Notes: generated from the letters alone by a model not told the origin. Shown: positions 21,345 to 54,000, counted from the first letter of the stretch. The stretch: DNA of 64,000 nt from Methanothrix sp. (GCA_963682135.1 OY821645.1:1056001-1120000); one strand, 5' to 3'. Program-made: numbers and translations.

Positions 21345-22574
21345 ATGAAAGAACTGGTTGATCAGATAAAAACTCGTCTCAGGGATCAGAAGATCGAGGT
21401 CTCTGATGAGGATATCGAGTCTCGTCTAAAGAAGCTCATCGTGGATTTTCGTGTTCCCGAGAGCGAAGCGAGAAGATCGGTTTTAAATTACTTCTTCAAA
21501 GAGCACGGCATAGTGCCTCAGGTCAGGGCCGGCTCGGATAAGGTCAAGATCGCCGATATCAAGGAGGCGGGCAAATGGGTGGATCTGGAGGTCAAGGTTC
21601 TGGATCTCTGGGAGCCGGCAGCCGAGACCATCTCTCAGACGGGACTATTGGGCGATGCGACCGGGTCCATCAAATTTGTGAAGTGGACCAAGTCTGATCT
21701 GCCCAATCTGGAGCTGGGCCGTAGCTATATCTTAAAAAAATTGGTCACGGATGAGTTTCAGGGCAGGTTTTCCGTAAAACTGAATCGCACCAGCCAGATC
21801 GAGCCGTTAGATGTCGATGTGGAGGCAAAGCCTGCTAGCAGAGCCCCGCAGCAAGTAACGGTGGCACAGATCAATGAGCCCGGCCTATGGGTTGACCTGA
21901 AGGTTAAGGTGGCACAGCTCTGGGAGACGAACAGCGAAGCCATCTCTCAGTCAGGATTGGTGGGCGACGAAACCGGAGCCATAAAATTTGTGAAGTGGAC
22001 TAAGGCTGATTTGCCGGATCTGGAGGATGGCAAGAGCTACCTTCTCAAGAACCTGGTAACAGATGAGTTTCAGGGCAGGTTTTCTGTAAAACTAAATCGC
22101 ACCAGCCAGATCGAACCGTTAGATGTCGATGTAGAGATAGGCTCCATCGCCGCAGAGTTTTCAGGTGCCCTGGTAGATGTGCAGAAGGGCTCCGGGCTGA
22201 TCAAACGTTGCCCGGTTTGCAAGCGCTCTCTGGCCAAGGGTGTCTGCAGCGAACATGGAAAGGTGGACGGCACTTATGATCTGCGCATTAAAGCCGTGCT
22301 GGACGACGGCCGCCGGGTTCAGGATCTGCTGGTCAATCGGGAGACCACGGAGAGGCTACTGAATCTCACATTAGAAGAGGCAAAGCAGATGGCCATGGAA
22401 GCGCTCGATCATGAGGTGGTGCACTCATTAATTGAGAGCAAACTGATGGGAAGATACTATTCCATAACAGGTCCGAGGATTGATCGCTATCTTCTTGTGG
22501 AAAGCATCAACGAAATCCCGCCGGTATCAGCGGCGCAGGTGGACGAGCTAATGGCTGCAATGGAGGTGGCATAA
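21345..22574 (+). CDS. Replication protein A (two OB folds plus Zn finger)
   Basis: Duplicated OB folds (GDATGSIKF / GDETGAIKF), CPVC...C.EHG, DLRIKAVLDDG. Confidence 0.9.
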   Translation: MKELVDQIKTRLRDQKIEVSDEDIESRLKKLIVDFRVPESEARRSVLNYFFKEHGIVPQVRAGSDKVKIADIKEAGKWVDLEVKVLDLWEPAAETISQTGLLGDATGSIKFVKWTKSDLPNLELGRSYILKKLVTDEFQGRFSVKLNRTSQIEPLDVDVEAKPASRAPQQVTVAQINEPGLWVDLKVKVAQLWETNSEAISQSGLVGDETGAIKFVKWTKADLPDLEDGKSYLLKNLVTDEFQGRFSVKLNRTSQIEPLDVDVEIGSIAAEFSGALVDVQKGSGLIKRCPVCKRSLAKGVCSEHGKVDGTYDLRIKAVLDDGRRVQDLLVNRETTERLLNLTLEEAKQMAMEALDHEVVHSLIESKLMGRYYSITGPRIDRYLLVESINEIPPVSAAQVDELMAAMEVA

Positions 22575-29142: not shown

Positions 29143-30744
29143 ATGAGATATATTGTGGTCACAGGCGGGGTTATGAGTGGGCTTGGCAAGGGCATTACTG
29201 CGGCGTCCATTGGCAGGCTGCTCATGAACAGAGGCTATAAGGTTACAGCTATCAAAATCGATCCTTACATCAACATCGATGCCGGGCTCATGAGTCCCTT
29301 TCAGCATGGGGAGGTTTATGTCCTCAAGGATGGGGGCGAGGTAGACCTGGATCTGGGCAACTACGAACGCTTTTTGGATGTAGAACTGACCCGCGACCAC
29401 AACATCACCACCGGCAAGGTTTACAGCACTGTCATTGAAAAAGAGCGCAGAGGCGAGTATCTGGGCAAGACTGTGCAGATCATCCCCCACATCACTGAGG
29501 AGATCAAGAGGCGCATTCGCCAGGTCTCCCGGGACGGGGGCTGCGAGATCTGTCTAATCGAGGTTGGCGGGACAGTAGGTGACATTGAGTCCATGCCTTT
29601 CCTGGAGGCCATGCGCCAGCTCAAGTATGAGGAGACGGGCAATATCTTCTTCGTTCACGTCACTCTGGCTCCTTCCACCATAGACGGCGAGCAGAAAACC
29701 AAGCCCACCCAGCACAGCGTGAAAGAGATGCGCCAGCTGGGTCTACAGCCCGACATGATAGTAGTACGCTGCGAGCATCCCCTCCTGGAGGAGACCAAGC
29801 ACAAGATAGCCCACTTCTGCGATGTGCCCATGGAGGCTGTGATCAGCGCCCACAATGCTGACGACATCTACCGCGTGCCTTTGCAGATGGAGGCAGAGGG
29901 CCTGGCCAGGTACCTCATGAAGGCCATGCGGCTCTTCCCCCTGGAAGAGAGGAAGGACTGGGATGAGTTCGTGCAGAAGATGGACGCCGTGGAGGGCGTG
30001 GTGAAGGTGGCCATTGTGGGCAAATACACCGTGGGCTCGCAGTGTGCCGACCCCATGGAGGATGCCTACCTCTCCATTCGAGAGTCCCTCAAGCACGCCG
30101 GAATTGAGGCAGGAGTGAAGACGGATGTGCAGTGGATTGATGCCGAGGAGCTGGAGCACGGCTCGGCTGACATCATCTTGCGAGAGGCGGACGGCATTCT
30201 GGTTCCGGGCGGCTTTGGCTCCCGCGGCACGGAGGGCAAGATTAAGGCAGTGCAGTATGCCAGGGAGATGAAGGTTCCCTACCTGGGGCTGTGCTTCGGC
30301 ATGCAATTGGCCGTGATCGAGTACGCCAGAAACGTCTGCGGTTTGCAGGGGGCGAGCAGCACTGAGTTCGGGGCCACGCCTAACCCAGTGATCGCTCTAT
30401 TGCCGGAGCAGGAGAAGATCAGGCACATGGGCGCCACCATGCGGCTGGGCAACTATCCGGCCCACCTCAAGGAAGGCAGCCTGGCGCACAGGATTTACGG
30501 CACGGATGAGATCGTGGAGAGGCACCGGCACCGCTACGAGGTCAATCCCGCTTACATCTCCCAGATTGAGGAGAAAGGCATGATCTTTTCAGGAACCAAC
30601 GGGGATCTGATGGAGATCTGCGAGATACCGGAGCATCCTTTCTTCTTTGCTTCGCAATTCCACCCGGAGATGAAGTCACGACCGGGCAAGCCGTCGCCGC
30701 CGTTTCTGGCTTTTGTGGAAGCGATGAAGGGGAAAGCGAAATAA
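29143..30744 (+). CDS. pyrG: CTP synthase
   Basis: [48 protein letters not shown]. Confidence 0.98.
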
Positions 30745-30788
30745 ATAATATTTTTACAATCTTTTATTGGAGGGAGGGATGCTAATTT

Positions 30789-33700
30789 ATGTGGACCGTC
30801 AGGGTTGAAGATGTTAAAAATATTGGCCGGACTCCTGGAGGGGATCATTTTACAGAATTTGTAAATTCTCTAATTCGTGGTTGGTCGCATTTGCACGGGT
30901 TGCCATGCTCAGAAATATTTGATAATCAACGCACCAATAAACAAGATGGTGGAGTTGATACCGAAGTTTGCAGATCGATTCTAAACGATCCTTTAGGATG
31001 GATGGGCAATCCAACCATTTGGCAGTATAAAGCCACAGATTCGAGCGAGGTCTCTGAAAGTAAATTGGTAACTGAAATTAAAAAGTGGTATGTTGTTGAA
31101 TGCATTAATCAAGGTTATGCTTATCGATTTTGCATATGTGATAGCATTCCTAGCTATATGAAGAAATCCTGGGAAGACATCTTGAACAGAGAAATTAAAA
31201 GAATAAATGCAAATGCGCCTAATGCTAAGGTTTTAACTGCTGAGGATTTGGCGCAATGGGCTAGTCGTCTACCCGCAATAAATCTGCGTTATTTCCATCC
31301 GAGAATAGCTACATTAGGTTTGCATTTCGAAGCATGGGGAAAAAGTATTACAGAAATCACTCCCGAGTTCGTAAGATATCCCGCAATAGATGGAATCATA
31401 AATGAGATCCAAAATCACGTCAATTTTGGGATAATCGCGCCAAATGTAGTGTTACCTGTATCCGGTCTATCGGGTGTTGGCAAAACTAGACTCGTCTATG
31501 AGAGTTTGCTATTGTGTGATGGTACTAAATCACTTGTAATTTTCACTAACGATGAGTATAAAGCCGTTGAAATAGCGATGACTATCTCAAACAATTCTAT
31601 GATAAATGCGATTCTTGTAGCAGACGAGTGCGGACTCAATGGACGTTTGAGATTAATCGATTTGCTGCGCGGTCACAAAGATAGAGTTCGGGTTATTACA
31701 ATAGATAATTCCGGAGTACGACCGGATACTGGTTCACCAGAATTATGGATCGAAAAAATGCCTCCCGAAATTGTGGACGAAATCTTAGTTAAGAACTATC
31801 CAGGTGTGCCTATTGGGCGGAGGAGAGCTTATACTGATTTGTCTAAGGGATTTGTTAGGTTTGCTGCGGATTTATGTCGAAATGATAATATGATTGCATC
31901 GTCTGGGTGCGTGGACCCTGCTCTACGCGATATCAGAGAATACCTTAGAAAAAGATTCTCTTCAGAAGAATTGAAAGTGATTCAAGCATTATCTTTGGTA
32001 AAGAAAATCGGGTATTTGGGCGATGTTTCCCATGAATTATCGGCATTATGCGAGACAGTTAACCTAGAACCTGAAAACTTCAAAGAAATCGCAACGCGGA
32101 TCCACAATGGTCCAGGATTTATTTCGAAAGCAGGAAGATATCTTTATGTAACACCAGAAATTATCGCGCAGACGGGATTTGATCTGGCATGGAACAATTG
32201 GATCAGTGATGATCCCGAAAGCTTTCTTAAAAAGTTGCCGAAAATACTACTTGAATCATTTTATTTGCGAACAAGGGAAAGCGCATCGGAGGTGGTCAGA
32301 ACCACAATTGGGGACTTCTTTCGAAAATGGTCATTCGAACTCAGACATAGCCAACTCAATTCGGTCGAAGCGGTCAATCGCCTAATAACTCTAATCGAAG
32401 TTGAACCTAGAATTTATTTGCCAGTCCTTCGAAACCTTATTGAACAATCAACACTAGAAGAACTCAAGAGTATAAGTGGGAAAAATAGGGATGGCAATTA
32501 CGGCCCAAGACGTTCCATTGTATGGCTGGCCGAGAGGATTGCAGCATTTCCTGAATACTTCGATGATGCCGAGAACATTTTGCTTAGATTGGGTTTAGCC
32601 GAATCGGAGAAAAATATAGGAAATAATGCAACCGCTATTTGGAGACAACTTTATAGGATCGCGTTGTCAGGCACTGCGGTACCCTTTTTGGCTCGATTAA
32701 ATCGACTTGAGCTGAGAATCTTATCATATGAAGATGAAACCTCTCATTTTGCTATTGGTGCGCTAGATGGAATACTAAATGATCATGCAATGCGTAGGGC
32801 AGGGCCTTCAATAGTCGCAGGAAAAATACCTCCCGAGGAGTACGTCCCAAATACTAATGATGAATATATCAAGTGTATATCTGAGACTTTTAAATTATTG
32901 CGTAGAATAATTAACCATGCTAGCATTCCGGATGACATAAAAAGGAGCGCTAAATATACGGTAGTAGATAATACAAGAACTTTACTTAATTTAGGTTTAG
33001 CGGACGAGTTACAGGTTACACTTTCTGAAAGAAATATTGATAACGACTTAAGAGCGAAATTGATTGAAAACATTGAAACGTTCTTGCACTTTGATATTAA
33101 AGCCAAATGGGGACGACCAGCACTTGCTGATGATTACGTAAAAAAAGTGGATATGTATCTTGCAAACCTAAAGCCGTCTGACGTTGGAGGACGAATTAGT
33201 ATTGTTGTAGGAACTTGCCGAGGTCATTACTCAATTTTGGGTAACGAAGATAAATTGGAATCGGAAGTAGAGTCGCTTGCCAAAGAATTCTTAGAGCACC
33301 CAGAAAACTTAAAGCAAGAGATTGAGACACTATTTTCCCCAGATGCTAAGAATGCCTCAAGCTTCGGCTACGGTCTTGGCAAATTAGATAAAAATGCTAT
33401 ATTTTTAGATTTCATAATTGAGTCGAGTATTAAATATAATTCCACAGAATTCGGCAGAGGATATCTGAGTGGTATTTTGGATTCATATCCGAGCCATGCG
33501 GATTTCATTAATAAAAAATTTGATGAAATCCAAATGGAATACCCCGTTTTAGCTTATGAATTATTCATGACGAGAATTGAATTAACTAATGCATTGGAAA
33601 GGGCACTTAAATTAGTCGATTTAGGAAAACTGGGACCCATCTACCTGGGTCGATTTATTTATGGTAAAGGGGAACACCAATTATCACAAAATAGTTTTAG

Positions 33701-34502
33701 AAATATACTTCAGAGACTGGTTGGTGCTGCTATTAAAGGGGATGCGCCCTCAATTAAGGCCGCGTTAGAATTTATCTCGTTTAGGATATTTAGCGAAAAG
33801 GAAGGTAAAATAGGACAAATATTAGATCAAGATGATATCAGGTCACTCGCTTGGAGGCTTATTGAAATCACTCCTAAGAAGGCCAAGTCATACGAATGGA
33901 CACAAATAATTGAGGCATTGTCAAAATATGACCCAGATCGAGCTGCAAAGTTGGCGGTTCTTGGACTAGCCGAAGGAGACCTTTTGCAATTGGGTGATTT
34001 TATCTCTTTTTTTACATCCTTGGCAAAGATGCATCCTGAATTAGTAATGCAGAGGCTCGGAGAAGTAATGCTCGACGAAGAAAAGGGATGGATTTTCTAC
34101 ACATACAAATTTAGTCCATTTTTCAAAGCCATTCCGGATGAGTCTATAATTAAATGGGTGAAGGATCATGGAGTCGAAGGAGCACGCCGATTAGCAAACC
34201 ACTTGCCTGCGCCTTACGTTTCCGACAATGGAGATGCAATTGTTCCAAATATTACTCAATTTATCCTAGATAATTATGGGGATGATGATAGAGTATTTAA
34301 TCAGTTTGCACTTGGTATGCATTCATTTCAATTATATTCTGGAGATATAGCTTCTCAGCACGACAGAGAAGCTGAAATCGCTCGAACATTTTTAAGCCAT
34401 CCTTCTGAGAGAATAAGGAAGTGGGCTCAAATGGAAGAAGAGAATGCAATTTCTGAAGCCAAAAGATGGAGGCAATTCGAAGAAGAAAGACAACTTGATT
34501 AG
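30789..34502 (+). CDS. Large putative defence protein: N-terminal PD-(D/E)xK-like nuclease, P-loop NTPase, long helical C-terminus
   Basis: DGGVD...IWQYKA, Walker A GLSGVGKT, Walker B ILVADE; visibly AT-richer than flanking genes. Confidence 0.7.
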   Translation: MWTVRVEDVKNIGRTPGGDHFTEFVNSLIRGWSHLHGLPCSEIFDNQRTNKQDGGVDTEVCRSILNDPLGWMGNPTIWQYKATDSSEVSESKLVTEIKKWYVVECINQGYAYRFCICDSIPSYMKKSWEDILNREIKRINANAPNAKVLTAEDLAQWASRLPAINLRYFHPRIATLGLHFEAWGKSITEITPEFVRYPAIDGIINEIQNHVNFGIIAPNVVLPVSGLSGVGKTRLVYESLLLCDGTKSLVIFTNDEYKAVEIAMTISNNSMINAILVADECGLNGRLRLIDLLRGHKDRVRVITIDNSGVRPDTGSPELWIEKMPPEIVDEILVKNYPGVPIGRRRAYTDLSKGFVRFAADLCRNDNMIASSGCVDPALRDIREYLRKRFSSEELKVIQALSLVKKIGYLGDVSHELSALCETVNLEPENFKEIATRIHNGPGFISKAGRYLYVTPEIIAQTGFDLAWNNWISDDPESFLKKLPKILLESFYLRTRESASEVVRTTIGDFFRKWSFELRHSQLNSVEAVNRLITLIEVEPRIYLPVLRNLIEQSTLEELKSISGKNRDGNYGPRRSIVWLAERIAAFPEYFDDAENILLRLGLAESEKNIGNNATAIWRQLYRIALSGTAVPFLARLNRLELRILSYEDETSHFAIGALDGILNDHAMRRAGPSIVAGKIPPEEYVPNTNDEYIKCISETFKLLRRIINHASIPDDIKRSAKYTVVDNTRTLLNLGLADELQVTLSERNIDNDLRAKLIENIETFLHFDIKAKWGRPALADDYVKKVDMYLANLKPSDVGGRISIVVGTCRGHYSILGNEDKLESEVESLAKEFLEHPENLKQEIETLFSPDAKNASSFGYGLGKLDKNAIFLDFIIESSIKYNSTEFGRGYLSGILDSYPSHADFINKKFDEIQMEYPVLAYELFMTRIELTNALERALKLVDLGKLGPIYLGRFIYGKGEHQLSQNSFRNILQRLVGAAIKGDAPSIKAALEFISFRIFSEKEGKIGQILDQDDIRSLAWRLIEITPKKAKSYEWTQIIEALSKYDPDRAAKLAVLGLAEGDLLQLGDFISFFTSLAKMHPELVMQRLGEVMLDEEKGWIFYTYKFSPFFKAIPDESIIKWVKDHGVEGARRLANHLPAPYVSDNGDAIVPNITQFILDNYGDDDRVFNQFALGMHSFQLYSGDIASQHDREAEIARTFLSHPSERIRKWAQMEEENAISEAKRWRQFEEERQLD

Positions 34503-34589
34503 ACTTGGGGATTGATAACTATATAAATTTTTCACATCCTTTGATATATCCATCAATCCTCCCTCGCACTTCTCTCAGGTTCCAGGCCC

Positions 34590-34668
34590 TTTTTGCCGGG
34601 GCCCCAGGGCGGCCACGGGCACCCGTGCCCGTGCGCCCGCGCGTGCACCTGCGGGTGGGCGGGGCCAA
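34590..34668. repeat. GC-rich structured intergenic repeat, copy A
   Basis: Contains perfect inverted repeat cacgggcac-cc-gtgcccgtg; ends gcacctgcgggtgggcggggcc, similar to 37066-37082. Confidence 0.6.
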
Positions 34669-34794
34669 CCGACTTAATCTGAATATGGGCGTTTACGCTA
34701 AACATATTCCCGTTCAAGCCTAAAGCTATTTTAACTCGTTTCGCCATCTTCTGGAAGAGATGCGGTAAGATAATTTGCCAAGAGGGAGCTGCAA

Positions 34795-35889
34795 ATGACC
34801 CGAAAGTACTGGCTGGATCTTTTTACAGGAACAACCTGGGAGGAATTCCTGGAGCACGGCGCAAAAGTAAGCGGCTTTAGGGAGAGCAGGAAAAAATCGG
34901 CGCAGAGGATCTCCCCAGGCGATTATCTCCTCTGCTACTTAACCGGCATTTCACGGTTTGTCGGCATCCTGGAAGTCAAGTCAAAATGCTATTCAGATAC
35001 CACCCCAATCTGGAAAGATGAGCTTTTCCCGATCCGCTTTGAGGTCGAGCTGGTGGAAAGATTGGAGGCAAAAACGGCGATTCCCGTCCTCAGCCTCAAA
35101 GATGAACTGGAGCTATTCAAGGGGCTGAAGTCCAGGAATGCCTGGACGGGATTTTTCAGGGGATCTCCTGCCGAATTTAACCCAAAGGACGGAGAAATAA
35201 TTTCCAGTGCCATCAGAAACGCCGTTAAAAATCCGGTTGAACTGGAATACGACGAGCGGAAGTACCGCCGCAAAACTAAGACATACGAATCAAAGATCGG
35301 CGTGGTGACAGTGCCCGAGGATCATGAGGAGGATACCAAGAAGGCCCCGCTCGAAGAGACCACTCATGAAGAGATCCAGTTTCTATTGCTCAAGCTAGGC
35401 TCGGACCTGGGCCTGGATGTGTGGGTTGCCAGGAACGACCGCAACCGCAATTACAATGGAATCAATTTTCAGGACGTTGCTAATCTGAGAAGGGAGCTTC
35501 CCAGGCAGTTTGATGATGCCACCAACAGAACCATTGAACTGATTGACGTTCTCTGGCTGCAAGGCGATGCCATAATAGCCGCCTTCGAGGTGGAGCATAC
35601 CACGGCCATTTACTCAGGCTTGCTGCGGATGTCGGACCTGGTGAGCATGCAGCCCAATATCAAGCTCGATCTCTTCATGGTCGCACCGGATGAGCGGCGA
35701 GAGAAGGTGTTCTACGAGATCAACCGGCCCACCTTCGCCAGGCTTAAGCCTCCCCTCCCGAAGATCTGCCGGTTCATTCCATATTCAGAGCTGAAGAGGG
35801 AAGTAGAGCAGATCGGAAGCAGAATGCGCTACATGAAGCCGGAGTTCATCTCTGAGATTGCAGAAAGCTGCGAGCCGGAGGATTCGTGA
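34795..35889 (+). CDS. EVE-domain protein with C-terminal restriction-endonuclease-like domain
   Basis: KYWL...TWEEF...ISPGDYLLCY (EVE/PUA-like); IDVLW...AAFEVEHTT..YSGLLRMSDL (PD-(D/E)xK-like). Confidence 0.8.
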   Translation: MTRKYWLDLFTGTTWEEFLEHGAKVSGFRESRKKSAQRISPGDYLLCYLTGISRFVGILEVKSKCYSDTTPIWKDELFPIRFEVELVERLEAKTAIPVLSLKDELELFKGLKSRNAWTGFFRGSPAEFNPKDGEIISSAIRNAVKNPVELEYDERKYRRKTKTYESKIGVVTVPEDHEEDTKKAPLEETTHEEIQFLLLKLGSDLGLDVWVARNDRNRNYNGINFQDVANLRRELPRQFDDATNRTIELIDVLWLQGDAIIAAFEVEHTTAIYSGLLRMSDLVSMQPNIKLDLFMVAPDERREKVFYEINRPTFARLKPPLPKICRFIPYSELKREVEQIGSRMRYMKPEFISEIAESCEPEDS

Positions 35890-36027
35890 GCGTGGACGGG
35901 CGGGCGGGGATGGCTGGAGCGCCCTGGATTCGCGGGACCAGGCCCGCGCGCGAGTCATCCGCTAATTCCAGGCGACAAAATGGTCCAGGAGCTTGCTGGA
36001 TAAAACCAGAGGTTAGATCCTGGAGGG

Positions 36028-36291
36028 CTATCGTCCCTGCACATATCCTCGCTCCCTGAGAAATGCGTTTTGGACCCATACCGTTGCATCCTCCACAAAA
36101 TACTCAAATCGGTGCTCACCGATTCTCAGGCGATAGACATCATGCGTCTTGCCTTTGAGCTTCTTGATATCCAGACCGCTTCTGGATGTAAATGGGTCAT
36201 CGCCCAATCTGGCAAGTCCTTCTTTTAGTCTCTCTTTTTCACCGCTCTCATCCAGGTACTTCTTGACTCTAGGATGGACTTGAACCTGCAT
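36028..36291 (-). CDS. RelE/ParE-family toxin
   Basis: DIKKLKG...YRLRIGEHR; start at MQVQV overlaps antitoxin stop. Confidence 0.85.
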   Translation of the reverse strand: MQVQVHPRVKKYLDESGEKERLKEGLARLGDDPFTSRSGLDIKKLKGKTHDVYRLRIGEHRFEYFVEDATVWVQNAFLRERGYVQGR

Positions 36292-36494
36292 CAGACTTCT
36301 TCCAGAGGTATGAAATCCGTCTTCTCTTTCTGCAGCCGCTCCCATCTGGCCTCGATGATCTCCTCCAGATCACCTTCCTCATAGAATCTGATCAGCCTCT
36401 GCAAGACTTCATCTTCTGTCTCACTGCCACGAGCCAGAAGCTTTAAGCGGATCTTGATGTCTTCATTGACGTGAATCGTTGCGCCCATTGTCAC
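36291..36494 (-). CDS. Putative RHH-type antitoxin
   Basis: ATIHVNEDIKIRL...SETEDEVLQRLI...FIPLEEV; directly upstream of toxin. Confidence 0.8.
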   Translation of the reverse strand: MTMGATIHVNEDIKIRLKLLARGSETEDEVLQRLIRFYEEGDLEEIIEARWERLQKEKTDFIPLEEV

Positions 36495-36654
36495 ACCATA
36501 CCAGGGTTCATTTTGCCGCTTTTCTCAGTTAAACGTTTTCATGGCCTCCGATAAAAATTATTTTGTAATAGGCCATAATGCCATATGACTGCACTATGCA
36601 TTTTCATGATCGACCCCCTGAAGTGAGGCCCATCATGGCCATCTACCCTGGCCT

Positions 36655-36892
36655 GCCCAACATCAAGCTCGATCTCTTCATGGTCGCACCGGATGAGCGG
36701 CGGGAGAAGGTGTTCTACGAGATCAACCGGCCCACCTTCGCCAGGCGTAAGCCGCCCCTCCCGAAGATCTGCCGGTTCATTCCTTACTCGGAACTGAAGA
36801 AGGAAGTCGAGCAGATCGGGAGCAGAATGCGCTACATGAAGCCGGAGTTCATCTCTGAGATTGCGGAAAGCTGCGAGCCGGACTACTCATGA
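36655..36892 (+). repeat. Diverged 238-bp copy of the 3' end of the EVE-nuclease gene (35652..35889)
   Basis: Manual alignment: gap-free, 15 codons differ, 11 of them synonymously. Confidence 0.95.
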
Positions 36893-36974
36893 ATTGCCGC
36901 TGTGCTTCCAGCTCGGCCACCATTTTTGACCGATCCAATCCAACTGCCACCTAGATTTTCGGGACTGCAAAGCC

Positions 36975-37083
36975 CTGCGCCCTTACCCCACGCCCCTGAT
37001 TTCCGCCGACGGGCTGCCCACGCTGCTCCCGGGCACGCGCCCGCACACCTGCCAGCGCACCCGTGGGTGGGCGGAGGGCCGCC
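36975..37083. repeat. GC-rich structured intergenic repeat, copy B
   Basis: cgcccttacccc...gatttccgccg...ggcacgcgcccg...cccgtgggtgggcgg, shared with copy C. Confidence 0.75.
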
Positions 37084-37134
37084 TGGCATCGCAAGTTAGT
37101 AGTAATAATGCCAACACATTCAATTCTGACGATC

Positions 37135-37494
37135 ATGATTCTCACTTCCAAGAAAATCCTGGACATCCACGAGCTGATAATCAGCAATTTTGGCGGTTTG
37201 GACGGAGTTCTTTGTCAGGGTACGATCGATTACCTGGTCGATCAGATAAATGCAGAGTCTGATCATTTTCGCAAAGCGGCTCTCGCTCTGCATATCGTGG
37301 CTAACTGCCACCCATTCCTGGATGGAAACAAGAGATCGGCCTTTCAAATAGCAGAATTAATCCTGAGCAGTGAAGGATACGCCATCATCGCAAAAGATGA
37401 TGAAATAATCCATATGCTTCTAAGAATCGCCAGTTACCAGTGCCAGGTTGATGAAGTCAAATTCTGGCTTCTAAAGAACACCGCTCAACTCTGA
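37135..37494 (+). CDS. Doc/Fic-family toxin
   Basis: HPFLDGNKRSA motif; ILDIHE...FGG..GV N-terminus. Confidence 0.9.
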   Translation: MILTSKKILDIHELIISNFGGLDGVLCQGTIDYLVDQINAESDHFRKAALALHIVANCHPFLDGNKRSAFQIAELILSSEGYAIIAKDDEIIHMLLRIASYQCQVDEVKFWLLKNTAQL

Positions 37495-37498
37495 GCAC

Positions 37499-37645
37499 TC
37501 ACATTTCGGCTAAACGCTTCATTAGTTTTTCATTGCGCCGCATGCTTTCTTCAAGGCGCTGTCTCTCGCCAGGGCTTAGGCCTTCAATTTTATTTGCAGA
37601 TATCTCTTGCTCCCTCCTTGATCCAGGAGTTGGTTGCCCTGACAT
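37499..37645 (-). CDS. Small putative antitoxin-like protein (48 aa), convergent with doc
   Basis: MSGQPTPGSRREQEISANKIEGLSPGERQRLEESMRRNEKLMKRLAEM, read manually; degenerate second copy near 39150-39200. Confidence 0.55.
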   Translation of the reverse strand: MSGQPTPGSRREQEISANKIEGLSPGERQRLEESMRRNEKLMKRLAEM

Positions 37646-37668
37646 GAAACACTACAGGCTTGCTGGGA

Positions 37669-38052
37669 TTAAATAGCTATTTGCGAGACGATCCTGGCCG
37701 CGTACCCAATCGCCGCCCGCACATCCTCCTGCTCTATCCTATACTCTCGGGCAGTTTCCTCGATCTGCATGCCTCCGGCCAGCGCGCCCAGGATGACAAC
37801 CACAGGAACCCGCGTTCCTCGTATGACGGGCTTGCCATGCGCGATCTCAGAATCGAGGACGATCCGCTCATCTCGCTGCAGGGGAATATCCCAGCCCTCA
37901 TAGCCGCTCTCCTCCCAGTCACGGTGGAGTTCTTCTATAAACGCCTCATTGTAATTGGTCTCGCCCACAAAGCCGCAAAACTTACTGGTTTTTGATTGCC
38001 TGCAAGCTGCGGCCTTGTCACCTGCAATTTCATCTTCAGTCTCATCGGTCAT
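37669..38052 (-). CDS. DUF433-domain protein with apparently unrelated N-terminal part (chimera)
   Basis: RIVLDSEIAHGKPVIRGTRVPV...EDVRAAIGYA. Confidence 0.75.
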   Translation of the reverse strand: MTDETEDEIAGDKAAACRQSKTSKFCGFVGETNYNEAFIEELHRDWEESGYEGWDIPLQRDERIVLDSEIAHGKPVIRGTRVPVVVILGALAGGMQIEETAREYRIEQEDVRAAIGYAARIVSQIAI

Positions 38053-38434
38053 ATTGGCGGCATCCTGTTTTCTCTTTTTTCATCCACTCGATTCCCAGAA
38101 AGATCTCGTCAATTGTAAGATCGCAAACATGAGAGCGCTCTTTGCTGTAGTCGCCTTTCCCAGAATTTTGGCTCTGCCAAAGGCGAGTAGCATCTACCAT
38201 GCTATGGCATTCTTCATGCGGGTCAGGGTGTTTTTCATTGCTGTTCGCAGTCGCTTCGCTATCATCGTCATCATAATTCCAGATTTCCGACTCGATGATC
38301 TCATCAATCAGCTTCTGGTCGTCAAGCTGAATCGAACCTGCCAGCCGCTCAGCGATGCTCAATTTCTTGTCCATTACTACCGCCAACTCCATATCCAATT
38401 CTATTCCAGCCCCAGTGCCTATGCGAGCCCGCAC
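38042..38434 (-). pseudogene. Mosaic ORF of antitoxin fragments
   Basis: LAGSIQLDDQKLIDEIIESE duplicates the C-terminus of the AbrB ORF at 38574; GKGDYSKER...DLTIDEI resembles another small antitoxin-like family. Confidence 0.55.
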
Positions 38435-38573
38435 GCAGCCGCAAGCGGTGTCGATGATGGGCAGATGCTATTATGGTTTATAAATGCAAATATCTTCTGC
38501 TTGCTGAAAATCGTTATCATTATCTATAAGTATCTTGGATTGGGGCATAGCAAATCCAGAGAGCCAATCACAG

Positions 38574-38786
38574 CTAATCCTCGGATTCGATAATCTCTTC
38601 TATAAGTTTTTGATCGTCTAATTTGATTGAGCCTGTAAGTTGATCAGTAAGGCTTTTGATCGGCTTGATGAGCAATTCTCCACCATTCACACTCAAAGCT
38701 ACTCGTTTGCCTTCACAAAGGTCGATCTCAGACAATATTGAACTGGGAAGCTCAATTATCCCGCCTTTCTTAACAATAACCTCCAT
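38574..38786 (-). CDS. AbrB/MazE/SpoVT-family antitoxin
   Basis: VKKGGIIELPSSI...L.EG.RV...GELLIKP. Confidence 0.8.
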   Translation of the reverse strand: MEVIVKKGGIIELPSSILSEIDLCEGKRVALSVNGGELLIKPIKSLTDQLTGSIKLDDQKLIEEIIESED

Positions 38787-38917
38787 CGATCTCACCAACA
38801 TTACTAATATGCCCCTGCCTATAAAAATAGATTTCCAAATTATGAGTGCCTAGGCGAGACGGACAGGCAAAATAGGTCGTCTTCCAGACCAGCAGCCATC
38901 CCCCGGCAGTGGCCCGA

Positions 38918-39014
38918 CCGCGCCCTTCCCCCCCGCGCCACCGGATTTCTGCCGGGAGATCGCCCCGCCGCCCCAGGCACGCGCCCGGCCCCCGTGCGTG
39001 CGCTCCCGTGGGTG
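38918..39014. repeat. GC-rich structured intergenic repeat, copy C
   Basis: cgcccttcccccc...gatttctgccgg...ggcacgcgcccg...cccgtgggtg aligns with copy B. Confidence 0.75.
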
Positions 39015-39045
39015 AACATGTAGCGTTCCAATGGACGCAACCGCA

Positions 39046-39312
39046 AGATAATCCAAATGCTGCTAAGAATCGCCAGTTACGAGTGCCGGGTCGATGAAGT
39101 CAAAATCTGTCTTGAGAAAAACGCGGGCGGAATCTGAAAGGAACGCTTGCATTTCGGCTGAACGCTTCATGAGTTTTTCATTGCGCTGCATGCTTTCTTT
39201 AATTTCTGTCTTCTCGTTCTTCAGATGGGCTTTGATCTGCTTGGATTAAATAGCTTCTTGAGAGACGATCTTTGCCGCGTACCCGATCGCCGCCCGCACA
39301 TCCTCTTGCTCC
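39046..39312. pseudogene. Degraded second copy of doc 3' end + small antitoxin 3' end + DUF433 3' end
   Basis: Aligns in order with ~37403-37494, ~37502-37550 and ~37666-37733. Confidence 0.85.
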
Positions 39313-39348
39313 TTCTGGTGAGGCAAGCAGCAATAAATATCAGAAGTA

Positions 39349-40098
39349 ATGAGGCATATCCGTATGGAAAACACCATTATTAGGCAAAGGATCCGGAAGA
39401 TGTTGATTATTCTCTCATTTGTCCTATTGCCGGCTACATTTGTATATATATCCTGTCCGATAATAATACAAGGCGCATCTGAAGGGATTGTTACCGGTGG
39501 CCTGATCCTCTTTATCCTCCTCTTTATCAGTTCCCTATTCCTGGGCAGGCTCTGGTGCGGCTGGCTCTGTCCAGGAGGCGGTCTGCAAGAGATTTATTTT
39601 GATATAAATAATAAAAATGTCAAAGCAAGCAGGCTAAACTGGCTTAAGTATCTCATATTCCTTGCAGTTATTCTCATCCCCCTCATCTCTGCAATTCGCT
39701 CCGCGGGAGGATTTACCACTATTGATCTTTTTTATAACACAGATCATGGAATCTCAATCGCCAAACAGGGAGCGTACGTAATATTCTTCGTCCAAATCGC
39801 TTTCTTTACCGTATTTGCCATGCTGGGCGGAAAACGGGGTTTCTGTCATTATTTCTGCCCGATCGCAGTGATAATTATCACCGGAAGGAAGATTCGAAAT
39901 CTGATCCGCTGGCCGGCTCTTCACCTCTCAGCTATTGGGAGCCGTTGCACCGACTGAAATAAATGCTCAATAAACTGCCCCATGGGGCTTGATGTGAACA
40001 TCATGGTCCGACAAGGGCGAATGGAAAACACGGAGTGCATACTCTGTGGCGTCTGCGCGGATGTCTGCCCGAAACAAGCGATCCACTATGAATTATAA
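39349..40098 (+). pseudogene. Membrane 4Fe-4S binding (polyferredoxin/NapH-like) protein interrupted by in-frame TGA at 39955
   Basis: GRLWCGWLCP, FCHYFCP, then CTD-TGA-NKCSINCP...ECILCGVCADVCP to TAA at 40096-40098. Confidence 0.85.
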
Positions 40099-40126
40099 TT
40101 TGCCGGCCTCATGAAGCCGGCAATAG

Positions 40127-41323
40127 TCATTGATTCGGCTTTGATCCCTCCGGCATTGCAGCCAACGTATCCTCCATGATCTTTCCATAAATATAACGGA
40201 ATATCAATCGTCCCGTAGCAATCATTGGCGTGGCCAGGAGCGCCCCCATTATGCCAAATGCATCAGCACCGGCAATGACGCCGATCAGGACTACCAGGGG
40301 AGGAAGATCGACCGCACTGCCCATGATCTTTGGCACCAGGAATTGATTTTCCAGCATCTGGACGAGCGTATAGAAAGCAATCACTATCAGCGCAAAAGTC
40401 AGATGGCTGAATGCCAGATGTGTTGATCCGAAGAGCAGGGCGACCAGAACCGCCGGAACAGCCGCCAGAACCGGGCCAACATTGGGGATCAACTCCATGA
40501 ATCCCGCAATGACGCCCAGGAAAAATGCCTGCGGCAATCCCAAGATAATGCCTCCTATCCAGGTGAAAAGGCCGACCGCCAGCATGAGCTGCATTTGACC
40601 ACGCAAAAAACCCGTCCAGGTCATATGGATATCTGCAAACAGCAGGTGAAGCTCCGGTCCGTGGCCGGGAGGTATCAAGCCAGAAAACCAATTCTTAAAC
40701 TCACCCGCTGCAAGAGTCATTTGCAGCGCCATGAGCAGCGTGAACAATACCGAAGCTAACCCAGAAAAGGTCGGTCCCAAAAACCCGGCCACTGTGCCCA
40801 GTGCCCTTCCCAGCCTGCTGCTCAAGTCGGCAACCGACATCTGTATGGCGGGAGCAGGAGTCTGGGCGGATGATGCAGAATAATTCAGAGCCGTGAGCAA
40901 GGAATCAATTGCAGGATTCAATATGCCTGCTAGCCACTGGTGGGCTTGCAGCTGTGTGGAAACTGATTGGACAAAGTCGATCAGTCTCTGGATAATCAGA
41001 TTGGGATCAATTTTCAGGGCAAAATTGGCCGCCTCCACCAGCGGCTGGATCAAAAGCAAGGGGACTAAGAGCAGCATGACCACGACGAATAAATAGGTAA
41101 TTACAATTGCCAGGGTCCTATTCATCCGCAGACGCACGGCCAGGAACCGAATAATTGGATCAACTATTAAGGCCAGCAGTGCGGCAGATAATACCAACGG
41201 AATGGCTGATCGACCTATGTAGACAACGAGCAGCCCTACCAGGAGCAGGAACACGCCCATGATATTACGAGAGGGTTCACTCCAACGGCTGCCAGAAGGC
41301 GCTTGAACCGAATCCACAGTCAT
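40127..41323 (-). CDS. AI-2E family transporter
   Basis: Multi-TM; FLRGQ, LIPNVGP, QMLENQFLVPKIMG, GALLATP. Confidence 0.9.
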   Translation of the reverse strand: MTVDSVQAPSGSRWSEPSRNIMGVFLLLVGLLVVYIGRSAIPLVLSAALLALIVDPIIRFLAVRLRMNRTLAIVITYLFVVVMLLLVPLLLIQPLVEAANFALKIDPNLIIQRLIDFVQSVSTQLQAHQWLAGILNPAIDSLLTALNYSASSAQTPAPAIQMSVADLSSRLGRALGTVAGFLGPTFSGLASVLFTLLMALQMTLAAGEFKNWFSGLIPPGHGPELHLLFADIHMTWTGFLRGQMQLMLAVGLFTWIGGIILGLPQAFFLGVIAGFMELIPNVGPVLAAVPAVLVALLFGSTHLAFSHLTFALIVIAFYTLVQMLENQFLVPKIMGSAVDLPPLVVLIGVIAGADAFGIMGALLATPMIATGRLIFRYIYGKIMEDTLAAMPEGSKPNQ

Positions 41324-41392
41324 AACTACAGGATTGCGGGTTTAGGAAGATAACCTTTGTGACGGGCTGCAGGGCGACAAGGCTCCTGAGTT

Positions 41393-41884
41393 TTACTGCA
41401 AATAATTCTCGATACTGATCAACTTATCCACATCGCTCTTGCTGATGCTCGACTCTGAGACGACCTTCTCCTGCACCTCGATAGGGGCATGGCTCCTCAG
41501 AGCCAGGGCCAGACAGTCGGAGGGCCGGGCATCTATCTCGCTCTGTTTGCTCTCGCTCTTAAGGGTGAGACGAGCATAGTAGATGCCGCCGTCCAGATCA
41601 TCGATGAGCACATTGGTGATGCTGGCGGAAAGGCATTCCAGGACGGAGATGAAGAGATCGTGAGTCATGGGCCGGGGCGACAGCTCCCCGGAGAGAGCAT
41701 GATGAATGGAGACCGCCTCGGAGAGCCCCACAAATATGGGCACAATCCTCGCCTTCTCATCTTCCAGGAGGACCACGGGTACAGGCGCGCTTCCTTCTGA
41801 TTCGGCGATGTAGACTCCTTTAACCCTGACTGGAACAGGTGCCCGGGTGACTTCGTCCTCCATGCTCATTTTATAAGACTCCAA
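41393..41884 (-). CDS. Bifunctional nuclease (DUF151) family protein
   Basis: PIFVGLSEA, RPMTHDL, IDARPSDCLALA. Confidence 0.9.
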   Translation of the reverse strand: MESYKMSMEDEVTRAPVPVRVKGVYIAESEGSAPVPVVLLEDEKARIVPIFVGLSEAVSIHHALSGELSPRPMTHDLFISVLECLSASITNVLIDDLDGGIYYARLTLKSESKQSEIDARPSDCLALALRSHAPIEVQEKVVSESSISKSDVDKLISIENYLQ

Positions 41885-41904
41885 TCATCTCTGCTTCATT
41901 CACA

Positions 41905-44900
41905 TTATGCTGCCCGATCTATGCCGATTCTCACACAGATCCCCTCTATATCCCAGTCTTTAACCAACTTTCCCTGTAGCTCCAGGCCCAGGCCCAACTG
42001 GAAATTTGCGGCTCGAACCTCGCTGGCAATATGATCCTTCTTTCGCATTGCTAAGTCGAGGATCGGCTTGCTCTCGATATCGACAACAGCCCGGATCTGA
42101 TCTTCCACGCGCAGATCCAGCTCCTTTCTCATGTCCTGAATGCGACGAATGATCTCTCGGGCATACCCTTCTGCCTCCAGCTCAGGTGTGAGGGTGATAT
42201 CCACGTAGACGAATCCCCGGGAAAACTCAGCCGCCGGCAAATTTTGGGGCGGTAGTTCCTTGATCGCCACCATCTCAGCAGTTATTTTATAATCCTTTCC
42301 TGCGAACGATATGGTCGCATCACCGCTGTCCAGTTGCCTCTTGACCTCAAAGGGATCGGCGGCAGCTATGGCCTCGACAACCGCTTTGGCTTCGCCCTTA
42401 TAAACCGGCCCGATCTTCTTATGAACCGGAGCCATCTCCAGGTCCATCTTTGGCTTTTCTCCCGCAGCCAGCACAGTTATCTTCTTGGAGTTGGTCTGGC
42501 CCTTGAGAACTTTTTCCAGGCCGCCCAGGTCCAGGACCTCTTTAGCCGGAGCAATCACGATCTCTGAGACCGGCCAGCGCAATTTCCTGCCACCTTTTTG
42601 GCGAGCATTGGAAGCCGCCATGGAAGCCTCCCTTACCAGCCCCATGCTCTCTTCCAGGCGCTTGTCTATCCGCTCCTTTTGGGCCTGAGGCCACTGGCAC
42701 ATATGCACCGACTGAGGTGCACCCTCGTCCAGGCCCTTCACCAGATTCTGATAGATGGACTCGGAGATGAAGGGAGCAAACGGAGCCATAATCTGGCTGA
42801 GTTTGACCAAAACCTCATAGATGGTGGCGTAGGCGGCCAGCTTGTCCGGATCATCCTGCTCAATCCAGGTGCGAGGCCGCACCAGCTGGATGTACCAGCG
42901 AGAGAGATCTTCCAGAATGAAGTCGGAGATGGAGCGTACAATGCGGTGCAGCTGGTAGCCCTCCATCTCTGCTGTGACATCCTCTATCAGGCTGTTTACC
43001 CGGGACAGAATCCAGCGATCCTCGGGACGCAGATTGCTCTCGTACCTGGATAGATCTGCCTTGCCGCCGTCAAACTTATCCAGGACCATGTAGGGCAGAG
43101 CAAAACGATAAGCATTCCAGAAGATGTTGAGCATGCGGCCGGTGTTCTCCACGCCGTCCCAGGAGAAGTGCAGATCCTCCCAGGGTGCATTGGCTCCCAG
43201 CACATAGAAGCGCAGGATGTCGGCCCCGAACTTTTGCACAACCTCTTCCGGCTGGACGATATTGCCTATGCTCTTGGACATCTTCCTGCCCTGGTCGTCC
43301 AAGGTGAAGCCGTGCATGAGAACGCTCTTGTAAGGCGCCCGGCCAAAGGAGACCATGGAGGCTCCCAGTTGAGAGTAGAACCAGCCGCGCGTCTGGTCGT
43401 GCCCTTCTGTGATGAAATCGGCCGGCCACCAGTCCGAGAATTCCTCCTTGTGACTGGGGAAACGCAATGTGGCCCAGGAGGCAACCGCACTGTCAAACCA
43501 GACATCAAAGACATCAGGCGAGCGCGCCATCTTGCCGCCGCAGGGGCAGTCCAGGAAGACATGGTCCACATCCGGCCGGTGCAGATCGGCGAGCTTCCGG
43601 CCGCTTCGCTCCTCGAGCTCTGCTGCCGTGCCGATAACCTCCAGATGACCGCAAGTCGGGCAGGTCCAGATGGGCAGGGGAATTCCCCAGTATCTCTGCC
43701 GGGAGATACACCAGTCGCGGGCATTGTTGATCCAGTCAGCGAAGCGAGCCGATCCGGCCCAATCCGGATACCAGGTTATGCGCGAGACCTCATCGAGCAT
43801 TTTGTCCCGCAGATCGGATATTCGCAAGAACCACTGGCTAGTGGCGATGAAAATTATGGGCGTCTTGCAGCGCCAGCAATGGCCGTAGCGGTGCGCGAGC
43901 CGTCCCGAAGCCAGCAGCCGTCCCTGCTCCTCCAGATCGGTGATAACTTCGCTATCAGCTTCCTTAACGTACAGGCCCTGATACTTCGTGCCTGCCTCAG
44001 CCGTATAGCGTCCGTCTCCTCCTACCGGGCAGAATATCTCCATATGATTTTTCATTCCCAGCTCGTAGTCCTCAAGACCGTGGCCGGGAGCGATGTGCAC
44101 GCAGCCGGTGTTCTCTGCCGTCACGAAGTCGGCGGCATAAACCTTGTGCAAGATATCTTTTTGGCGGGGGACCATATCGCCCAGAGGGTGGCTGTAGGTG
44201 AGCTTTTGCATCTGCTCGGCCGACAGAGAGGAAAACAGCTCATAGTCCTGATAGCGGCCGATCTTGAGAACCGACTCAACCAGGTCCGAGGCCATGATGA
44301 GGATCTCCGCCTTTCCGTCTTTCCAGGCTCTGACCCTGGAATATTGGAAGGAGGGGTTCACAGCCACGCCCACGTTGGCGGGAATGGTCCAGGGTGTGGT
44401 GGTCCAGATGACAATGTAGGTATTCTCTTCGCCCAGCACCGGGAACTTGACATAGATGGAGTAGTCGGTCTCATCCCAGTACTCCACCTCGGAGTCGGCA
44501 ATGGCCGTCTGGCAGCGCGGGCACCAATTCACCACCCGCAGACCTCTCTCCAGGAGGTTATTCTCATGCGCTTTTTTCAGAGTCCACCAGGCAGCCTCCA
44601 GATACTCGTTCTTGAGTGTCATGTAGGGATCTTCCCAGTCCAGCCAGGCCCCCAGGATCTGAAACTGAGCAGTCATGTCGTCTTTTTGGCGCAGCGCGAA
44701 CTCCTTGCAGCGGGCGATGAACTTATCGACGCCATAAGCCTCGATATCCTTCTTGTTTCTAAAGCCGAAGGACTCCTCTACCTTGACCTCGATGGGCAGG
44801 CCGTGCATATCCCAGCCCGCCCGGTCCTTGACCTCAAAACCATTCATGGACTTGTAGCGCAAAACGCAGTCCTTGATCACCTTATTCCAGGCGGTGCCCA

Positions 44901-45066
44901 GATGAATGCGACCCGTGGTGTAAGGCGGTCCGTCCACAAAGAAAAATTTCTTGCCGCCCACCCGCAGCTTGCGAACCGTGCGATAGGTATCTTCCCTCTC
45001 CCACAACAATCTGATCTGGCTTTCCAGATCCTTTGCATTATACTGCCCAGCCACCTCGCTGATCAT
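41905..45066 (-). CDS. ileS: Isoleucine-tRNA ligase
   Basis: DGPPYTTG.IHLG, WCISRQRYWG, EGHDQTRGWF, KMSKS. Confidence 0.98.
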   Translation of the reverse strand: MISEVAGQYNAKDLESQIRLLWEREDTYRTVRKLRVGGKKFFFVDGPPYTTGRIHLGTAWNKVIKDCVLRYKSMNGFEVKDRAGWDMHGLPIEVKVEESFGFRNKKDIEAYGVDKFIARCKEFALRQKDDMTAQFQILGAWLDWEDPYMTLKNEYLEAAWWTLKKAHENNLLERGLRVVNWCPRCQTAIADSEVEYWDETDYSIYVKFPVLGEENTYIVIWTTTPWTIPANVGVAVNPSFQYSRVRAWKDGKAEILIMASDLVESVLKIGRYQDYELFSSLSAEQMQKLTYSHPLGDMVPRQKDILHKVYAADFVTAENTGCVHIAPGHGLEDYELGMKNHMEIFCPVGGDGRYTAEAGTKYQGLYVKEADSEVITDLEEQGRLLASGRLAHRYGHCWRCKTPIIFIATSQWFLRISDLRDKMLDEVSRITWYPDWAGSARFADWINNARDWCISRQRYWGIPLPIWTCPTCGHLEVIGTAAELEERSGRKLADLHRPDVDHVFLDCPCGGKMARSPDVFDVWFDSAVASWATLRFPSHKEEFSDWWPADFITEGHDQTRGWFYSQLGASMVSFGRAPYKSVLMHGFTLDDQGRKMSKSIGNIVQPEEVVQKFGADILRFYVLGANAPWEDLHFSWDGVENTGRMLNIFWNAYRFALPYMVLDKFDGGKADLSRYESNLRPEDRWILSRVNSLIEDVTAEMEGYQLHRIVRSISDFILEDLSRWYIQLVRPRTWIEQDDPDKLAAYATIYEVLVKLSQIMAPFAPFISESIYQNLVKGLDEGAPQSVHMCQWPQAQKERIDKRLEESMGLVREASMAASNARQKGGRKLRWPVSEIVIAPAKEVLDLGGLEKVLKGQTNSKKITVLAAGEKPKMDLEMAPVHKKIGPVYKGEAKAVVEAIAAADPFEVKRQLDSGDATISFAGKDYKITAEMVAIKELPPQNLPAAEFSRGFVYVDITLTPELEAEGYAREIIRRIQDMRKELDLRVEDQIRAVVDIESKPILDLAMRKKDHIASEVRAANFQLGLGLELQGKLVKDWDIEGICVRIGIDRAA

Positions 45067-53107: not shown

Positions 53108-53264
53108 TTATTTTGCCGCTTCCTCCACAATCCCGATCTCTTCTTCCGTCAGGTCGTAAAGCTCGTACACCAGCATGTCGATCTGCCGGTCGGTGGCCTC
53201 GATCCGGCGGACGAGCAGCGTCCTGTCGTGATCGGTGCCTGATGATGCCTGCTTGTGAAGATCG
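53108..53264 (-). pseudogene. 3' fragment of type IIG (Eco57I/TaqI-C-like) restriction-modification gene, copy 2
   Basis: RRIEATDRQIDMLVYELYDLTEEEIGIVE, the characteristic type IIG C-terminus. Confidence 0.8.
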
Positions 53265-53525
53265 TCATATGTTGTATGCGTAATCGTGATGATCAAAGTT
53301 AACGAACCAGACTTCTGCGATAATAATCTTATAAATGATAACCCAATTTCCGACATGGGCGCTTCGATAACCAGCAAGGTTTTGCGTAAGTGTTTCTCCA
53401 ATATCAGGATTTTGCAGGATATCTCTAATCTTTTTAAGAGTTCTTTCTTTCAAAACGGCATTCTTTTTGGTCAGGCGCTTAAAATTTTTGTCGAAAAGAG
53501 GTGACGATTGCGGCGAATAATTCAT
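53265..53525 (-). CDS. RelE/StbE-family toxin
   Basis: F.KNFKRL...NPDIGE.L...LAGYRSAHVGNWVIIY...DHHDYAY. Confidence 0.85.
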   Translation of the reverse strand: MNYSPQSSPLFDKNFKRLTKKNAVLKERTLKKIRDILQNPDIGETLTQNLAGYRSAHVGNWVIIYKIIIAEVWFVNFDHHDYAYNI

Positions 53526-53531
53526 GCAAAT

Positions 53532-53696
53532 CTACAAGTTTGAAAGGTGCTCTATGAATTCGTCCGCATTTTTAAAGCGCTTTCCAAGACCCGCCCGAAG
53601 CTCTGCATCTCCTTTTAAGGTATTGGCTACGATGCGCTCATCATCTTCGATAGACCTGTATTTCGTTTCTGGCTTCTTGATAGTCTTTGCCATCAT
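53532..53696 (-). CDS. Putative antitoxin (54 aa)
   Basis: MMAKTIKKPETKYRSIEDDERIVANTLKGDAELRAGLGKRFKNADEFIEHLSNL, read manually; 6 bp upstream of toxin. Confidence 0.75.
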   Translation of the reverse strand: MMAKTIKKPETKYRSIEDDERIVANTLKGDAELRAGLGKRFKNADEFIEHLSNL

Positions 53697-53752
53697 TTAG
53701 GATCGCCAAATATGTACTTCGACTCTCCGCTTTAAAGACTTTCGCCGGACAT

Positions 53753-54000
53753 TTACCTGCTCGCTTCCTACACAATCCCTATCTCTTCATCTGTCAGGTC
53801 GTAAAGCTCGTACTACCTGCCTGTCGATCTGCCGGTCGGTGGCCTCGATCCGGCGGGCGAGGAGCGTCTTGTCGTGATCGGTGCCGGTGGAGGCAAGCTT
53901 GTGAAGATCGAGCATGGTCTGCACCAGCTCCACCAGGCGGTCGTGGCGGGCGACGTCTGCAGGGTCGGAGAAGTCGATGGTGCGGATCGGGAGTGGTGAC
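53753..54000 (-). pseudogene. 3' fragment of type IIG restriction-modification gene, copy 1 (frameshift plus amber stop)
   Basis: LPIRTIDFSDPAD.ARHDRLVELVQTMLDLHK...IEATDRQID, then 1-nt insertion before YELYDLTDEEIGIV-TAG. Confidence 0.8.

Follow-up and report, generated by a model that had tools for sequence, protein, structure and literature searches.

Archaeal integrons have been described from 75 metagenome-assembled genomes (MAGs) in nine phyla, mostly as clusters of attC sites lacking integron integrases (CALINs; PMC9668308), and the searchable text of that survey makes no mention of Methanothrix. The locus compared here with such systems lies in a 64,000-nucleotide stretch of DNA from Methanothrix sp. 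(GCA_963682135.1 OY821645.1; "the window"), which corresponds to positions 1,056,001-1,120,000 of a genome assembled as one contig (3.04 Mb, 50% G+C). Three copies of a GC-rich repeat, elements A, B and C, punctuate an island of toxin-antitoxin (TA) and defence genes in the window; together with its counterparts in related genomes, the island forms a cassette array occupying one hypervariable TA/defence locus that starts just after the pyrG gene. Our preferred interpretation, which we hold tentatively, is that A, B and C are Methanothrix-specific cassette-junction repeats and serve as direct-repeat recombination substrates in an integron-like array that has no integrase. A full-text search, whose coverage leaves out subscription journals and supplements, returned no published description of these junction repeats.

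A first-pass annotation of the window had proposed three related, hairpin-forming intergenic elements in one orientation, plus a fourth GC-rich patch (D) related to them. GC-rich patches are indeed present at all four positions. Comparison with other Methanothrix genomes redefines them as follows (window coordinates):

34566-34668, plus strand: element A, matching core profile positions 52-145 (nhmmer E 0.12, third best genome-wide), about the 3′ two-thirds of the core.
36925-37081, plus strand: element B, core profile match at 36925-37074 (E 3e-20), with a diverged 5′ part and an internal deletion.
38829-39023, plus strand: element C, full-length, matching positions 4-196 of a profile built from relatives only (E 2.4e-26).
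35890-35954, no strand assigned: GC-rich patch D, outside the detectable family (fold z -0.12 and -0.06).

The common orientation of A, B and C is confirmed. Their proposed bounds fell short on the 5′ side, as the true element has a core of 146 nt and a long form of about 200 nt, conservation running some 45 nt further 5′ than the core in an alignment of 39 full copies.

Judged from its own genome alone, the relatedness of the three elements would appear weak. In a 17-kb self-comparison, B and C share 74% identity over 97 nt, and A and B 69% over 77 nt. When each copy was omitted in turn from the profile used for an nhmmer search of the whole genome, it came back at E 1.8 (B), 11 (A) or 17 (C), ranked among unrelated GC-rich matches; GC-rich 60-mers make up 441 patches genome-wide. 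Neither blastn-short nor an nhmmer profile of A, B and C found any copy in this genome beyond the three. The family is obvious in relatives though invisible within the host genome. A profile made from the 37 non-window copies of the alignment recovers B at 36976-37081 (profile positions 96-199, E 1.2e-15) besides C, and reaches A at 34618-34667 with E 0.12, the third best match in 3.04 Mb, the next one being at E 3.3. By these profile scores, B and C are certain members of the family and A is probably a degenerate 3′ remnant of it. The annotation's remark that the copies sit at module boundaries, and not in the housekeeping parts of the window, holds for the entire genome: all three copies lie within 4.5 kb, in the island.

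Contigs assembled from four DNA runs are identical in sequence to window positions 33500-40500 and show no joints there. In one run that matches only partially, contigs leave the window sequence at 36931/36935, the 5′ edge of B, and at 38961, inside C. As contigs from a mixed sample they are only a hint, consistent with strain variants breaking at the elements.

Patch D gave zero matches with both family profiles on either strand, with filters off and E values up to 1000, and its alignment to the positionally equivalent copy of another genome is unconvincing; we therefore rejected it as an inverted or degenerate copy. The 11-mer that it has in common with the region preceding C looks like a chance occurrence. 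Its position is the site where another genome joins a truncated element to the same downstream sequence.

The family is confined to the Methanothrix lineage. With the 4.9-kb region as query, 16 of 24 same-genus genomes matched, and 16 genomes representing other families of the class yielded nothing. Matching genomes contained several matches to the stretch around C, about 1 kb apart. The first-pass annotation had named a lack of further copies as a ground for abandoning the family, and such copies, missing from the host genome, were found in relatives: a 166-nt copy used as query matched 29 of 59 genus genomes, almost always with its matches clustered on one contig. The 146-position core profile, applied to the matching regions of relatives, brought the number of copies at E<=1e-3 to 70, spread over the window and 27 other loci. 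The mapped set used below comprises 71 copies (A included) in 28 loci of 22 genomes; the copies being phylogenetically related, all family counts are descriptive. Most relatives are fragmentary MAGs, many of whose arrays run out at contig ends, and ORF calls were mechanical, the neighbours of each copy being taken as the nearest open reading frames (ORFs). When 185,579 species, each represented by one genome, were scanned for an exact pattern, 12 stretches were returned, all from records titled Methanothrix sp. or Methanotrichaceae archaeon. No match was found in viral contigs or in plasmids, and the same arrays are visible in eight metagenome stretches. The element is 75% G+C and strand-asymmetric, with 45% C and 30% G on its plus strand (GC skew -0.21). 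A coding role was ruled out: six-frame translation revealed no conserved reading frame, and the copies differ by indels whose lengths are not multiples of three.

The copies of any one locus share the same strand. They follow one another at a median distance of 1063 bp, and 30 of 43 spacings fall between 850 and 1250 bp. Wherever the left flank is visible, in seven mapped loci (the window included) and one metagenome contig, pyrG precedes the first element and is oriented like it. At the pyrG stop codon, give or take a few nucleotides, homology between genomes is lost; a conserved attI-like site was looked for behind the gene and none was seen. The co-location with TA and defence genes noted in the first-pass annotation is borne out throughout the mapped set, where the elements separate TA/defence cassettes. 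TA cassettes predominate, typically PIN/VapC with an AbrB-like VapB, or DUF433 with PIN or DUF5615. Others encode Fic/Doc, EVE-domain, TIR, HEPN, helicase-HNH and KAP NTPase proteins, AAA_15/21 ATPases, YhcG nucleases, pentapeptide proteins, and a fusion of a solute-binding protein (SBP) domain with a deaminase. Without exception, the 92 TA-type ORFs run opposite to the element, and several non-TA genes share the element strand. The 71 copies show 50 distinct combinations of left and right neighbours.

Two cassettes and one array end deserve separate mention. The fusion of SBP_bac_3 with a cytidine/dCMP deaminase has elements on both sides at positions 13203-14333 of locus L026 (oriented) and 1650-2804 of locus L052, so that a housekeeping-looking gene behaves as a cassette. 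An EVE-domain protein of 364-390 aa is a repeated cassette (window 34795-35889; L021:1125-2297; L034, oriented, 6836-7948); only its N-terminal 100 residues or so match EVE, the conserved C-terminal two-thirds belonging to no family. At the end of one relative's array lies an IS605 OrfB/TnpB-like fragment with a Cas12f1-like TNB domain (L013:10185-11009).

The behaviour of the core relative to its flanks bears on the mechanism. Even with unalignable flanks, copies from different genomes retain 70-82% identity along most of the core, and a common neighbour adds only a few identity points (four classes, of 1321, 68, 55 and 4 pairs). When mutually dependent pairs were subjected to change-point analysis, those with the left flank alone in common ceased to be highly identical at core position 32 or before in 20 of 21 cases; where only the right flank is common, high identity began at position 126 or beyond in 12 of 18, and at 42-101 in the other six. 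These change points indicate that cassette-level homology stops at the element edges and that the core has its own history. Where BLAST aligns one array with another, the matches break off at many different points inside the elements, and truncated and internally deleted copies are frequent. In the window, the modules of B and C and the 3′ end of the EVE gene are decayed segmental duplicates adjoining elements.

Since unrelated genes have been swapped exactly between oriented copies in 22 genomes, we infer that rearrangements occur at or in the elements. Recombination between direct repeats, either homologous or relying on short homology, is favoured over a site-specific process because breakpoints are not fixed, no recombinase is linked to the arrays and decayed duplications lie beside the window elements. 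The repeats would act at the DNA level as recombination substrates, with unequal crossing-over, gene conversion and exchange with related DNA taking place between them. Such events would duplicate, delete, truncate and reshuffle cassettes while keeping the polarity of the array.

Several observations weigh against this interpretation. No recombination event has been directly observed. Copies of one genome are on average only 77.5% identical, those of different genomes 73.1%, and 48 of 60 copies have their nearest relative in another genome; the low value within genomes and the prevalence of foreign nearest relatives imply little concerted evolution, the copies being old paralogues. Their identity is also low for efficient homologous recombination. 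Besides, the conserved blocks (GCCCGACCGCG, CCAGGCA, GCGCCCGC and CCCGCGGGTGGGC) alternate with variable spacers, a pattern that looks like sequence-specific constraint and would favour protein binding, be it in a site-specific or a regulatory role. The uniform polarity of the TA genes would follow equally from directional site-specific insertion. Finally, recombination between existing repeats leaves unexplained how a new gene first enters an array.

The main rival, which we consider unlikely, is that the elements are double-strand sites for a recombinase encoded elsewhere. Here, cassettes would attach at a minimal element some 110 nt long with an imperfect inverted repeat at its ends, and the crossover would lie near its palindromic 3′ end. 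Besides the fixed orientation in one locus and the single polarity of the 92 TA ORFs, this proposal draws on the layout of the element. Conservation peaks in two blocks, GCCCGACCGCG (0.94; core positions 42-52) and CGCGGGTGGGC (0.88; 133-143), and in 28 of 38 copies 8-9 of their 11 positions are mutually complementary, but this inverted repeat was chosen after the fact, in a sequence of 75% G+C, and shows almost no compensatory change. At least eight 5′-truncated copies have their left end just before GGCCCGACCGCG, a few nucleotides ahead of the left block, and CACCCGCGGGTG is a 12-bp palindrome. On the right side, the sequence becomes cassette-specific no more than about 20 nt from the block CCCGCGGGTGGGC, and directly behind CCCGCGGG in 8 of 39 aligned copies; however, this boundary varies, and match ends are spread all over the element. 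No recombinase gene occurs among the ORFs scanned in or beside the arrays examined. The first-pass annotation had suggested looking for a co-located tyrosine recombinase or HUH gene, and neither is near: the tyrosine recombinase genes of the host genome map at 912, 1635 and 2807 kb, at least 178 kb away from the island at 1090 kb, and the closest of seven HUH (Y1_Tnp) genes, all outside the island, is about 53 kb off. These seven are IS200/IS605-type transposase genes (e.g., C1:36224, 410374, 1037554), several of them with identical scores, which suggests an active or recent insertion sequence (IS) family.

Next comes the idea, improbable in our view, that the element insulates cassettes from one another's transcription, terminates transcription or acts at the RNA level; a G-quadruplex (G4) or R-loop on its G-rich strand could block read-through between autoregulated TA modules. 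For about 39 of the 71 copies, the neighbour is a TA operon on the minus strand with its 3′ end at the element, and all TA operons would transcribe the G-rich strand into RNA. That strand carries a canonical G4 motif in 24 of 39 copies, as against 11.2 expected from shuffles, with 0 of 39 on the other strand; the copies being homologous, the excess is not an independent count and is to be taken as a lead rather than a statistic. Strand asymmetry fits such a role, and the conserved blocks imply some constraint. Intrinsic termination in Archaea uses a T-run, however, and the element has no T-run of this kind; nor has it a conserved RNA structure. Plus-strand genes also occur both after it (at least 11 copies) and before it, so that it stands in no constant relation to transcription units.

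We regard as improbable, and rank below the insulator, a passive origin in which the repeat is the intergenic part of a tandemly duplicated ancestral TA unit with no role of its own. Many cassettes are indeed paralogous VapBC or DUF433-PIN pairs of about 1 kb, homogenisation is slight among the copies, which are old paralogues, and degenerate or truncated copies such as A are tolerated. Yet the elements also flank unrelated genes (EVE, Fic, TIR, helicase-HNH, KAP NTPase and the SBP-deaminase fusion), and the 50 neighbour combinations would require repeated replacement of exactly the DNA between elements. The identity of cores whose flanks are unalignable likewise runs counter to a passive relic.

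The possibilities initially put forward for the family were folded single-strand sites analogous to attC, a structured RNA, or elements of the repetitive extragenic palindrome (REP) or miniature inverted-repeat transposable element (MITE) type. The internal inverted repeats described at the same time turned out to be no more than composition gives: fold z scores of A to D, computed for both strands against dinucleotide shuffles, range from -0.34 to +1.34. For the 39 full copies, compared with mononucleotide shuffles, mean z is 0.12 and 0.21 for the plus and minus strands as DNA, and 0.28 and -0.10 as RNA, with z below -2 in at most 2 of 39. Self-pairing of the plus strand is limited by its excess of C over G. 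RNAalifold applied to the alignment yields 9 pairs at -2.11 kcal/mol. In the best structure that could be derived, 13 pairs change on both sides compared with 10.5 +/- 2.1 expected, and the covariation score of 0.122, against 0.115 for shuffles, is reached by 47 of 500 shuffles. A search of window positions 30000-45000 with Rfam 15 gave no match at E<=1, and a tRNA scan was empty too.

As the first-pass annotation had already remarked, canonical attC ends are missing: a regular-expression search covering both strands and flanks found the RYYYAAC...GTTRRRY pair, at 30-130 nt spacing, in 0 of 71 copies. No integron integrase (IntI, TIGR02249) scores over the cut-off in any of the 59 genus genomes, the best match in the host genome reaching 47 bits against a cut-off of 265 and lying 1.7 Mb off. 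The lack of IntI alone does not exclude a CALIN, as CALINs by definition have none. No target-site duplication was seen on inspection by eye, which was not a systematic test. The attC comparison holds for placement, with one array, one orientation and cassettes of about 1 kb, and the array architecture and TA cargo do recall sedentary integrons, as does a length of 110-200 nt close to that of attC. Nevertheless, with fold scores near zero, no attC ends, no integrase, no covariation above shuffles, nothing in Rfam, and three copies at one locus in one orientation rather than dispersed, attC-like hairpins, structured RNA and REP/MITE elements are all rejected as very improbable.

In the window, the island is made up of the following genes and segments:

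29143-30744, plus strand: pyrG (CTP synthase), bordering the island on its conserved left side (Pfam CTP_synth_N, E 8e-124).
30789-34502, plus strand: 1237-aa ORF at the variable first position of the island, with no Pfam family and a GC content of 0.38-0.40 (genome 0.50).
34795-35889, plus strand (element strand): EVE-domain gene, 364 aa, a cassette (Pfam EVE, E 5e-7).
36028-36494, minus strand: TA-like pair, consisting of a PIN-like ORF (36028-36345, 105 aa) and a DUF7557 ORF (36291-36494, E 2e-5).
36578-36892, plus strand: duplicate of the EVE gene 3′ end (35652-35889 versus 36655-36892, 93% over 238 nt).
37063-37494, plus strand: Fic/Doc gene, just 3′ of B (Pfam Fic, E 1e-9).
37669-38052, minus strand: DUF433 antitoxin-like gene (Pfam DUF433, E 5e-19).
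38042-38434, minus strand: 130-aa ORF with no Pfam match, sharing a 27-nt repeat (family D16) with the neighbouring AbrB-like gene.
38574-38801, minus strand: AbrB/MazE-like antitoxin gene of the VapB type (MazE_antitoxin, E 0.005, under the curated cut-off).
39048-39311, plus strand: decayed duplicate of the module behind B (Fic 3′ end and downstream sequence), collinear with B and C.

The slot immediately following pyrG is filled by unrelated genes in other genomes (a KAP NTPase, a pentapeptide protein, a 631-aa ORF), and the 1237-aa ORF may be a horizontally acquired defence gene. Homologues of the EVE gene elsewhere have an element directly behind them. The 105-aa ORF groups with "PIN-b" proteins, whose representative matches PIN at E 2.8e-4, and is 95% identical to a cassette of another genome. 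Because the GTG start listed for the Fic/Doc gene falls within B, translation probably begins further downstream; the junction of element and Fic gene recurs in other genomes. The AbrB/MazE-like gene groups with 18 VapB-like ORFs that are paired with PIN genes in other arrays. The decayed duplicate aligns in two parts, 37405-37568 with 39048-39216 (79%) and 37661-37734 with 39238-39311 (89%). The window also contains direct repeats unrelated to the family, at 2732-3144, 18113-18593, 21543-22136 and 53117-53910. They include a 126-nt unit present three times in tandem, TPR-like repeats spaced 102-144 nt apart, a 312-nt repeat pair, and a segment duplicated at a 645-nt spacing with 89-92% identity.

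Methanothrix is a major lineage of acetoclastic methanogens. In roughly half of its species-level genomes, TA and defence genes are housed in a single modular array that has its own junction sequence. Should cassette exchange be driven by these junctions, Archaea would possess a gene-cassette system independent of integron machinery, and the repeat would provide a concrete, testable sequence for the study of how archaeal defence islands are assembled. A bolder, speculative proposal, itself unlikely, combines several of the features above into a second kind of gene-cassette platform, independent of an integrase: oriented, strand-asymmetric junctions of about 110-200 nt, with putative protein-binding blocks and a strand prone to G4 or R-loop formation, would direct cassette capture, duplication and loss at a pyrG hotspot, through either some double-strand recombinase or transcription-driven recombination of the class-switch type. 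Immunoglobulin class-switch regions are G-rich on the non-template strand. The likeness is by analogy only, in that oriented, G-rich repetitive DNA lies between gene cassettes and its transcription would give G-rich RNA; there is no homology between the two.

Among other known systems, REP elements and the bacterial interspersed mosaic elements (BIMEs) related to them, as well as MITEs, resemble the Methanothrix repeat as regards its short length, GC-richness, intergenic position and weak terminal inverted repeat (8-9 of 11 positions). Unlike them, it is found at one locus in one orientation, is not palindromic and has no linked transposase, including REP-associated tyrosine transposases (RAYTs). 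Defence-island hotspots offer a parallel in their variable TA and defence genes at a fixed site beside a housekeeping gene, in this case pyrG. The Methanothrix modules differ in being each separated by a copy of one oriented repeat; to our knowledge, such a junction repeat is not a described feature of defence hotspots.

Integrons and CALINs provide the nearest match. As in those systems, repeats of about 100-200 nt lie in one orientation at one chromosomal locus, separate cassettes of one or two genes and about 1 kb, and enclose a TA-rich cargo whose order and content vary between related genomes. Methanothrix arrays have at least two same-orientation sites less than 4 kb apart, as does a CALIN by the definition found in the text of the survey (PMC9668308). 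They depart from integrons in having neither IntI nor the R''/R' consensus ends nor an imperfect-palindrome fold, and the element is strongly strand-asymmetric and conserved in its centre, the reverse of attC; its boundaries are also imprecise. We have not classed the array as an integron because these defining attC features fail. Its architecture is closest to that of a CALIN or a sedentary integron, built on a junction sequence of a different type.

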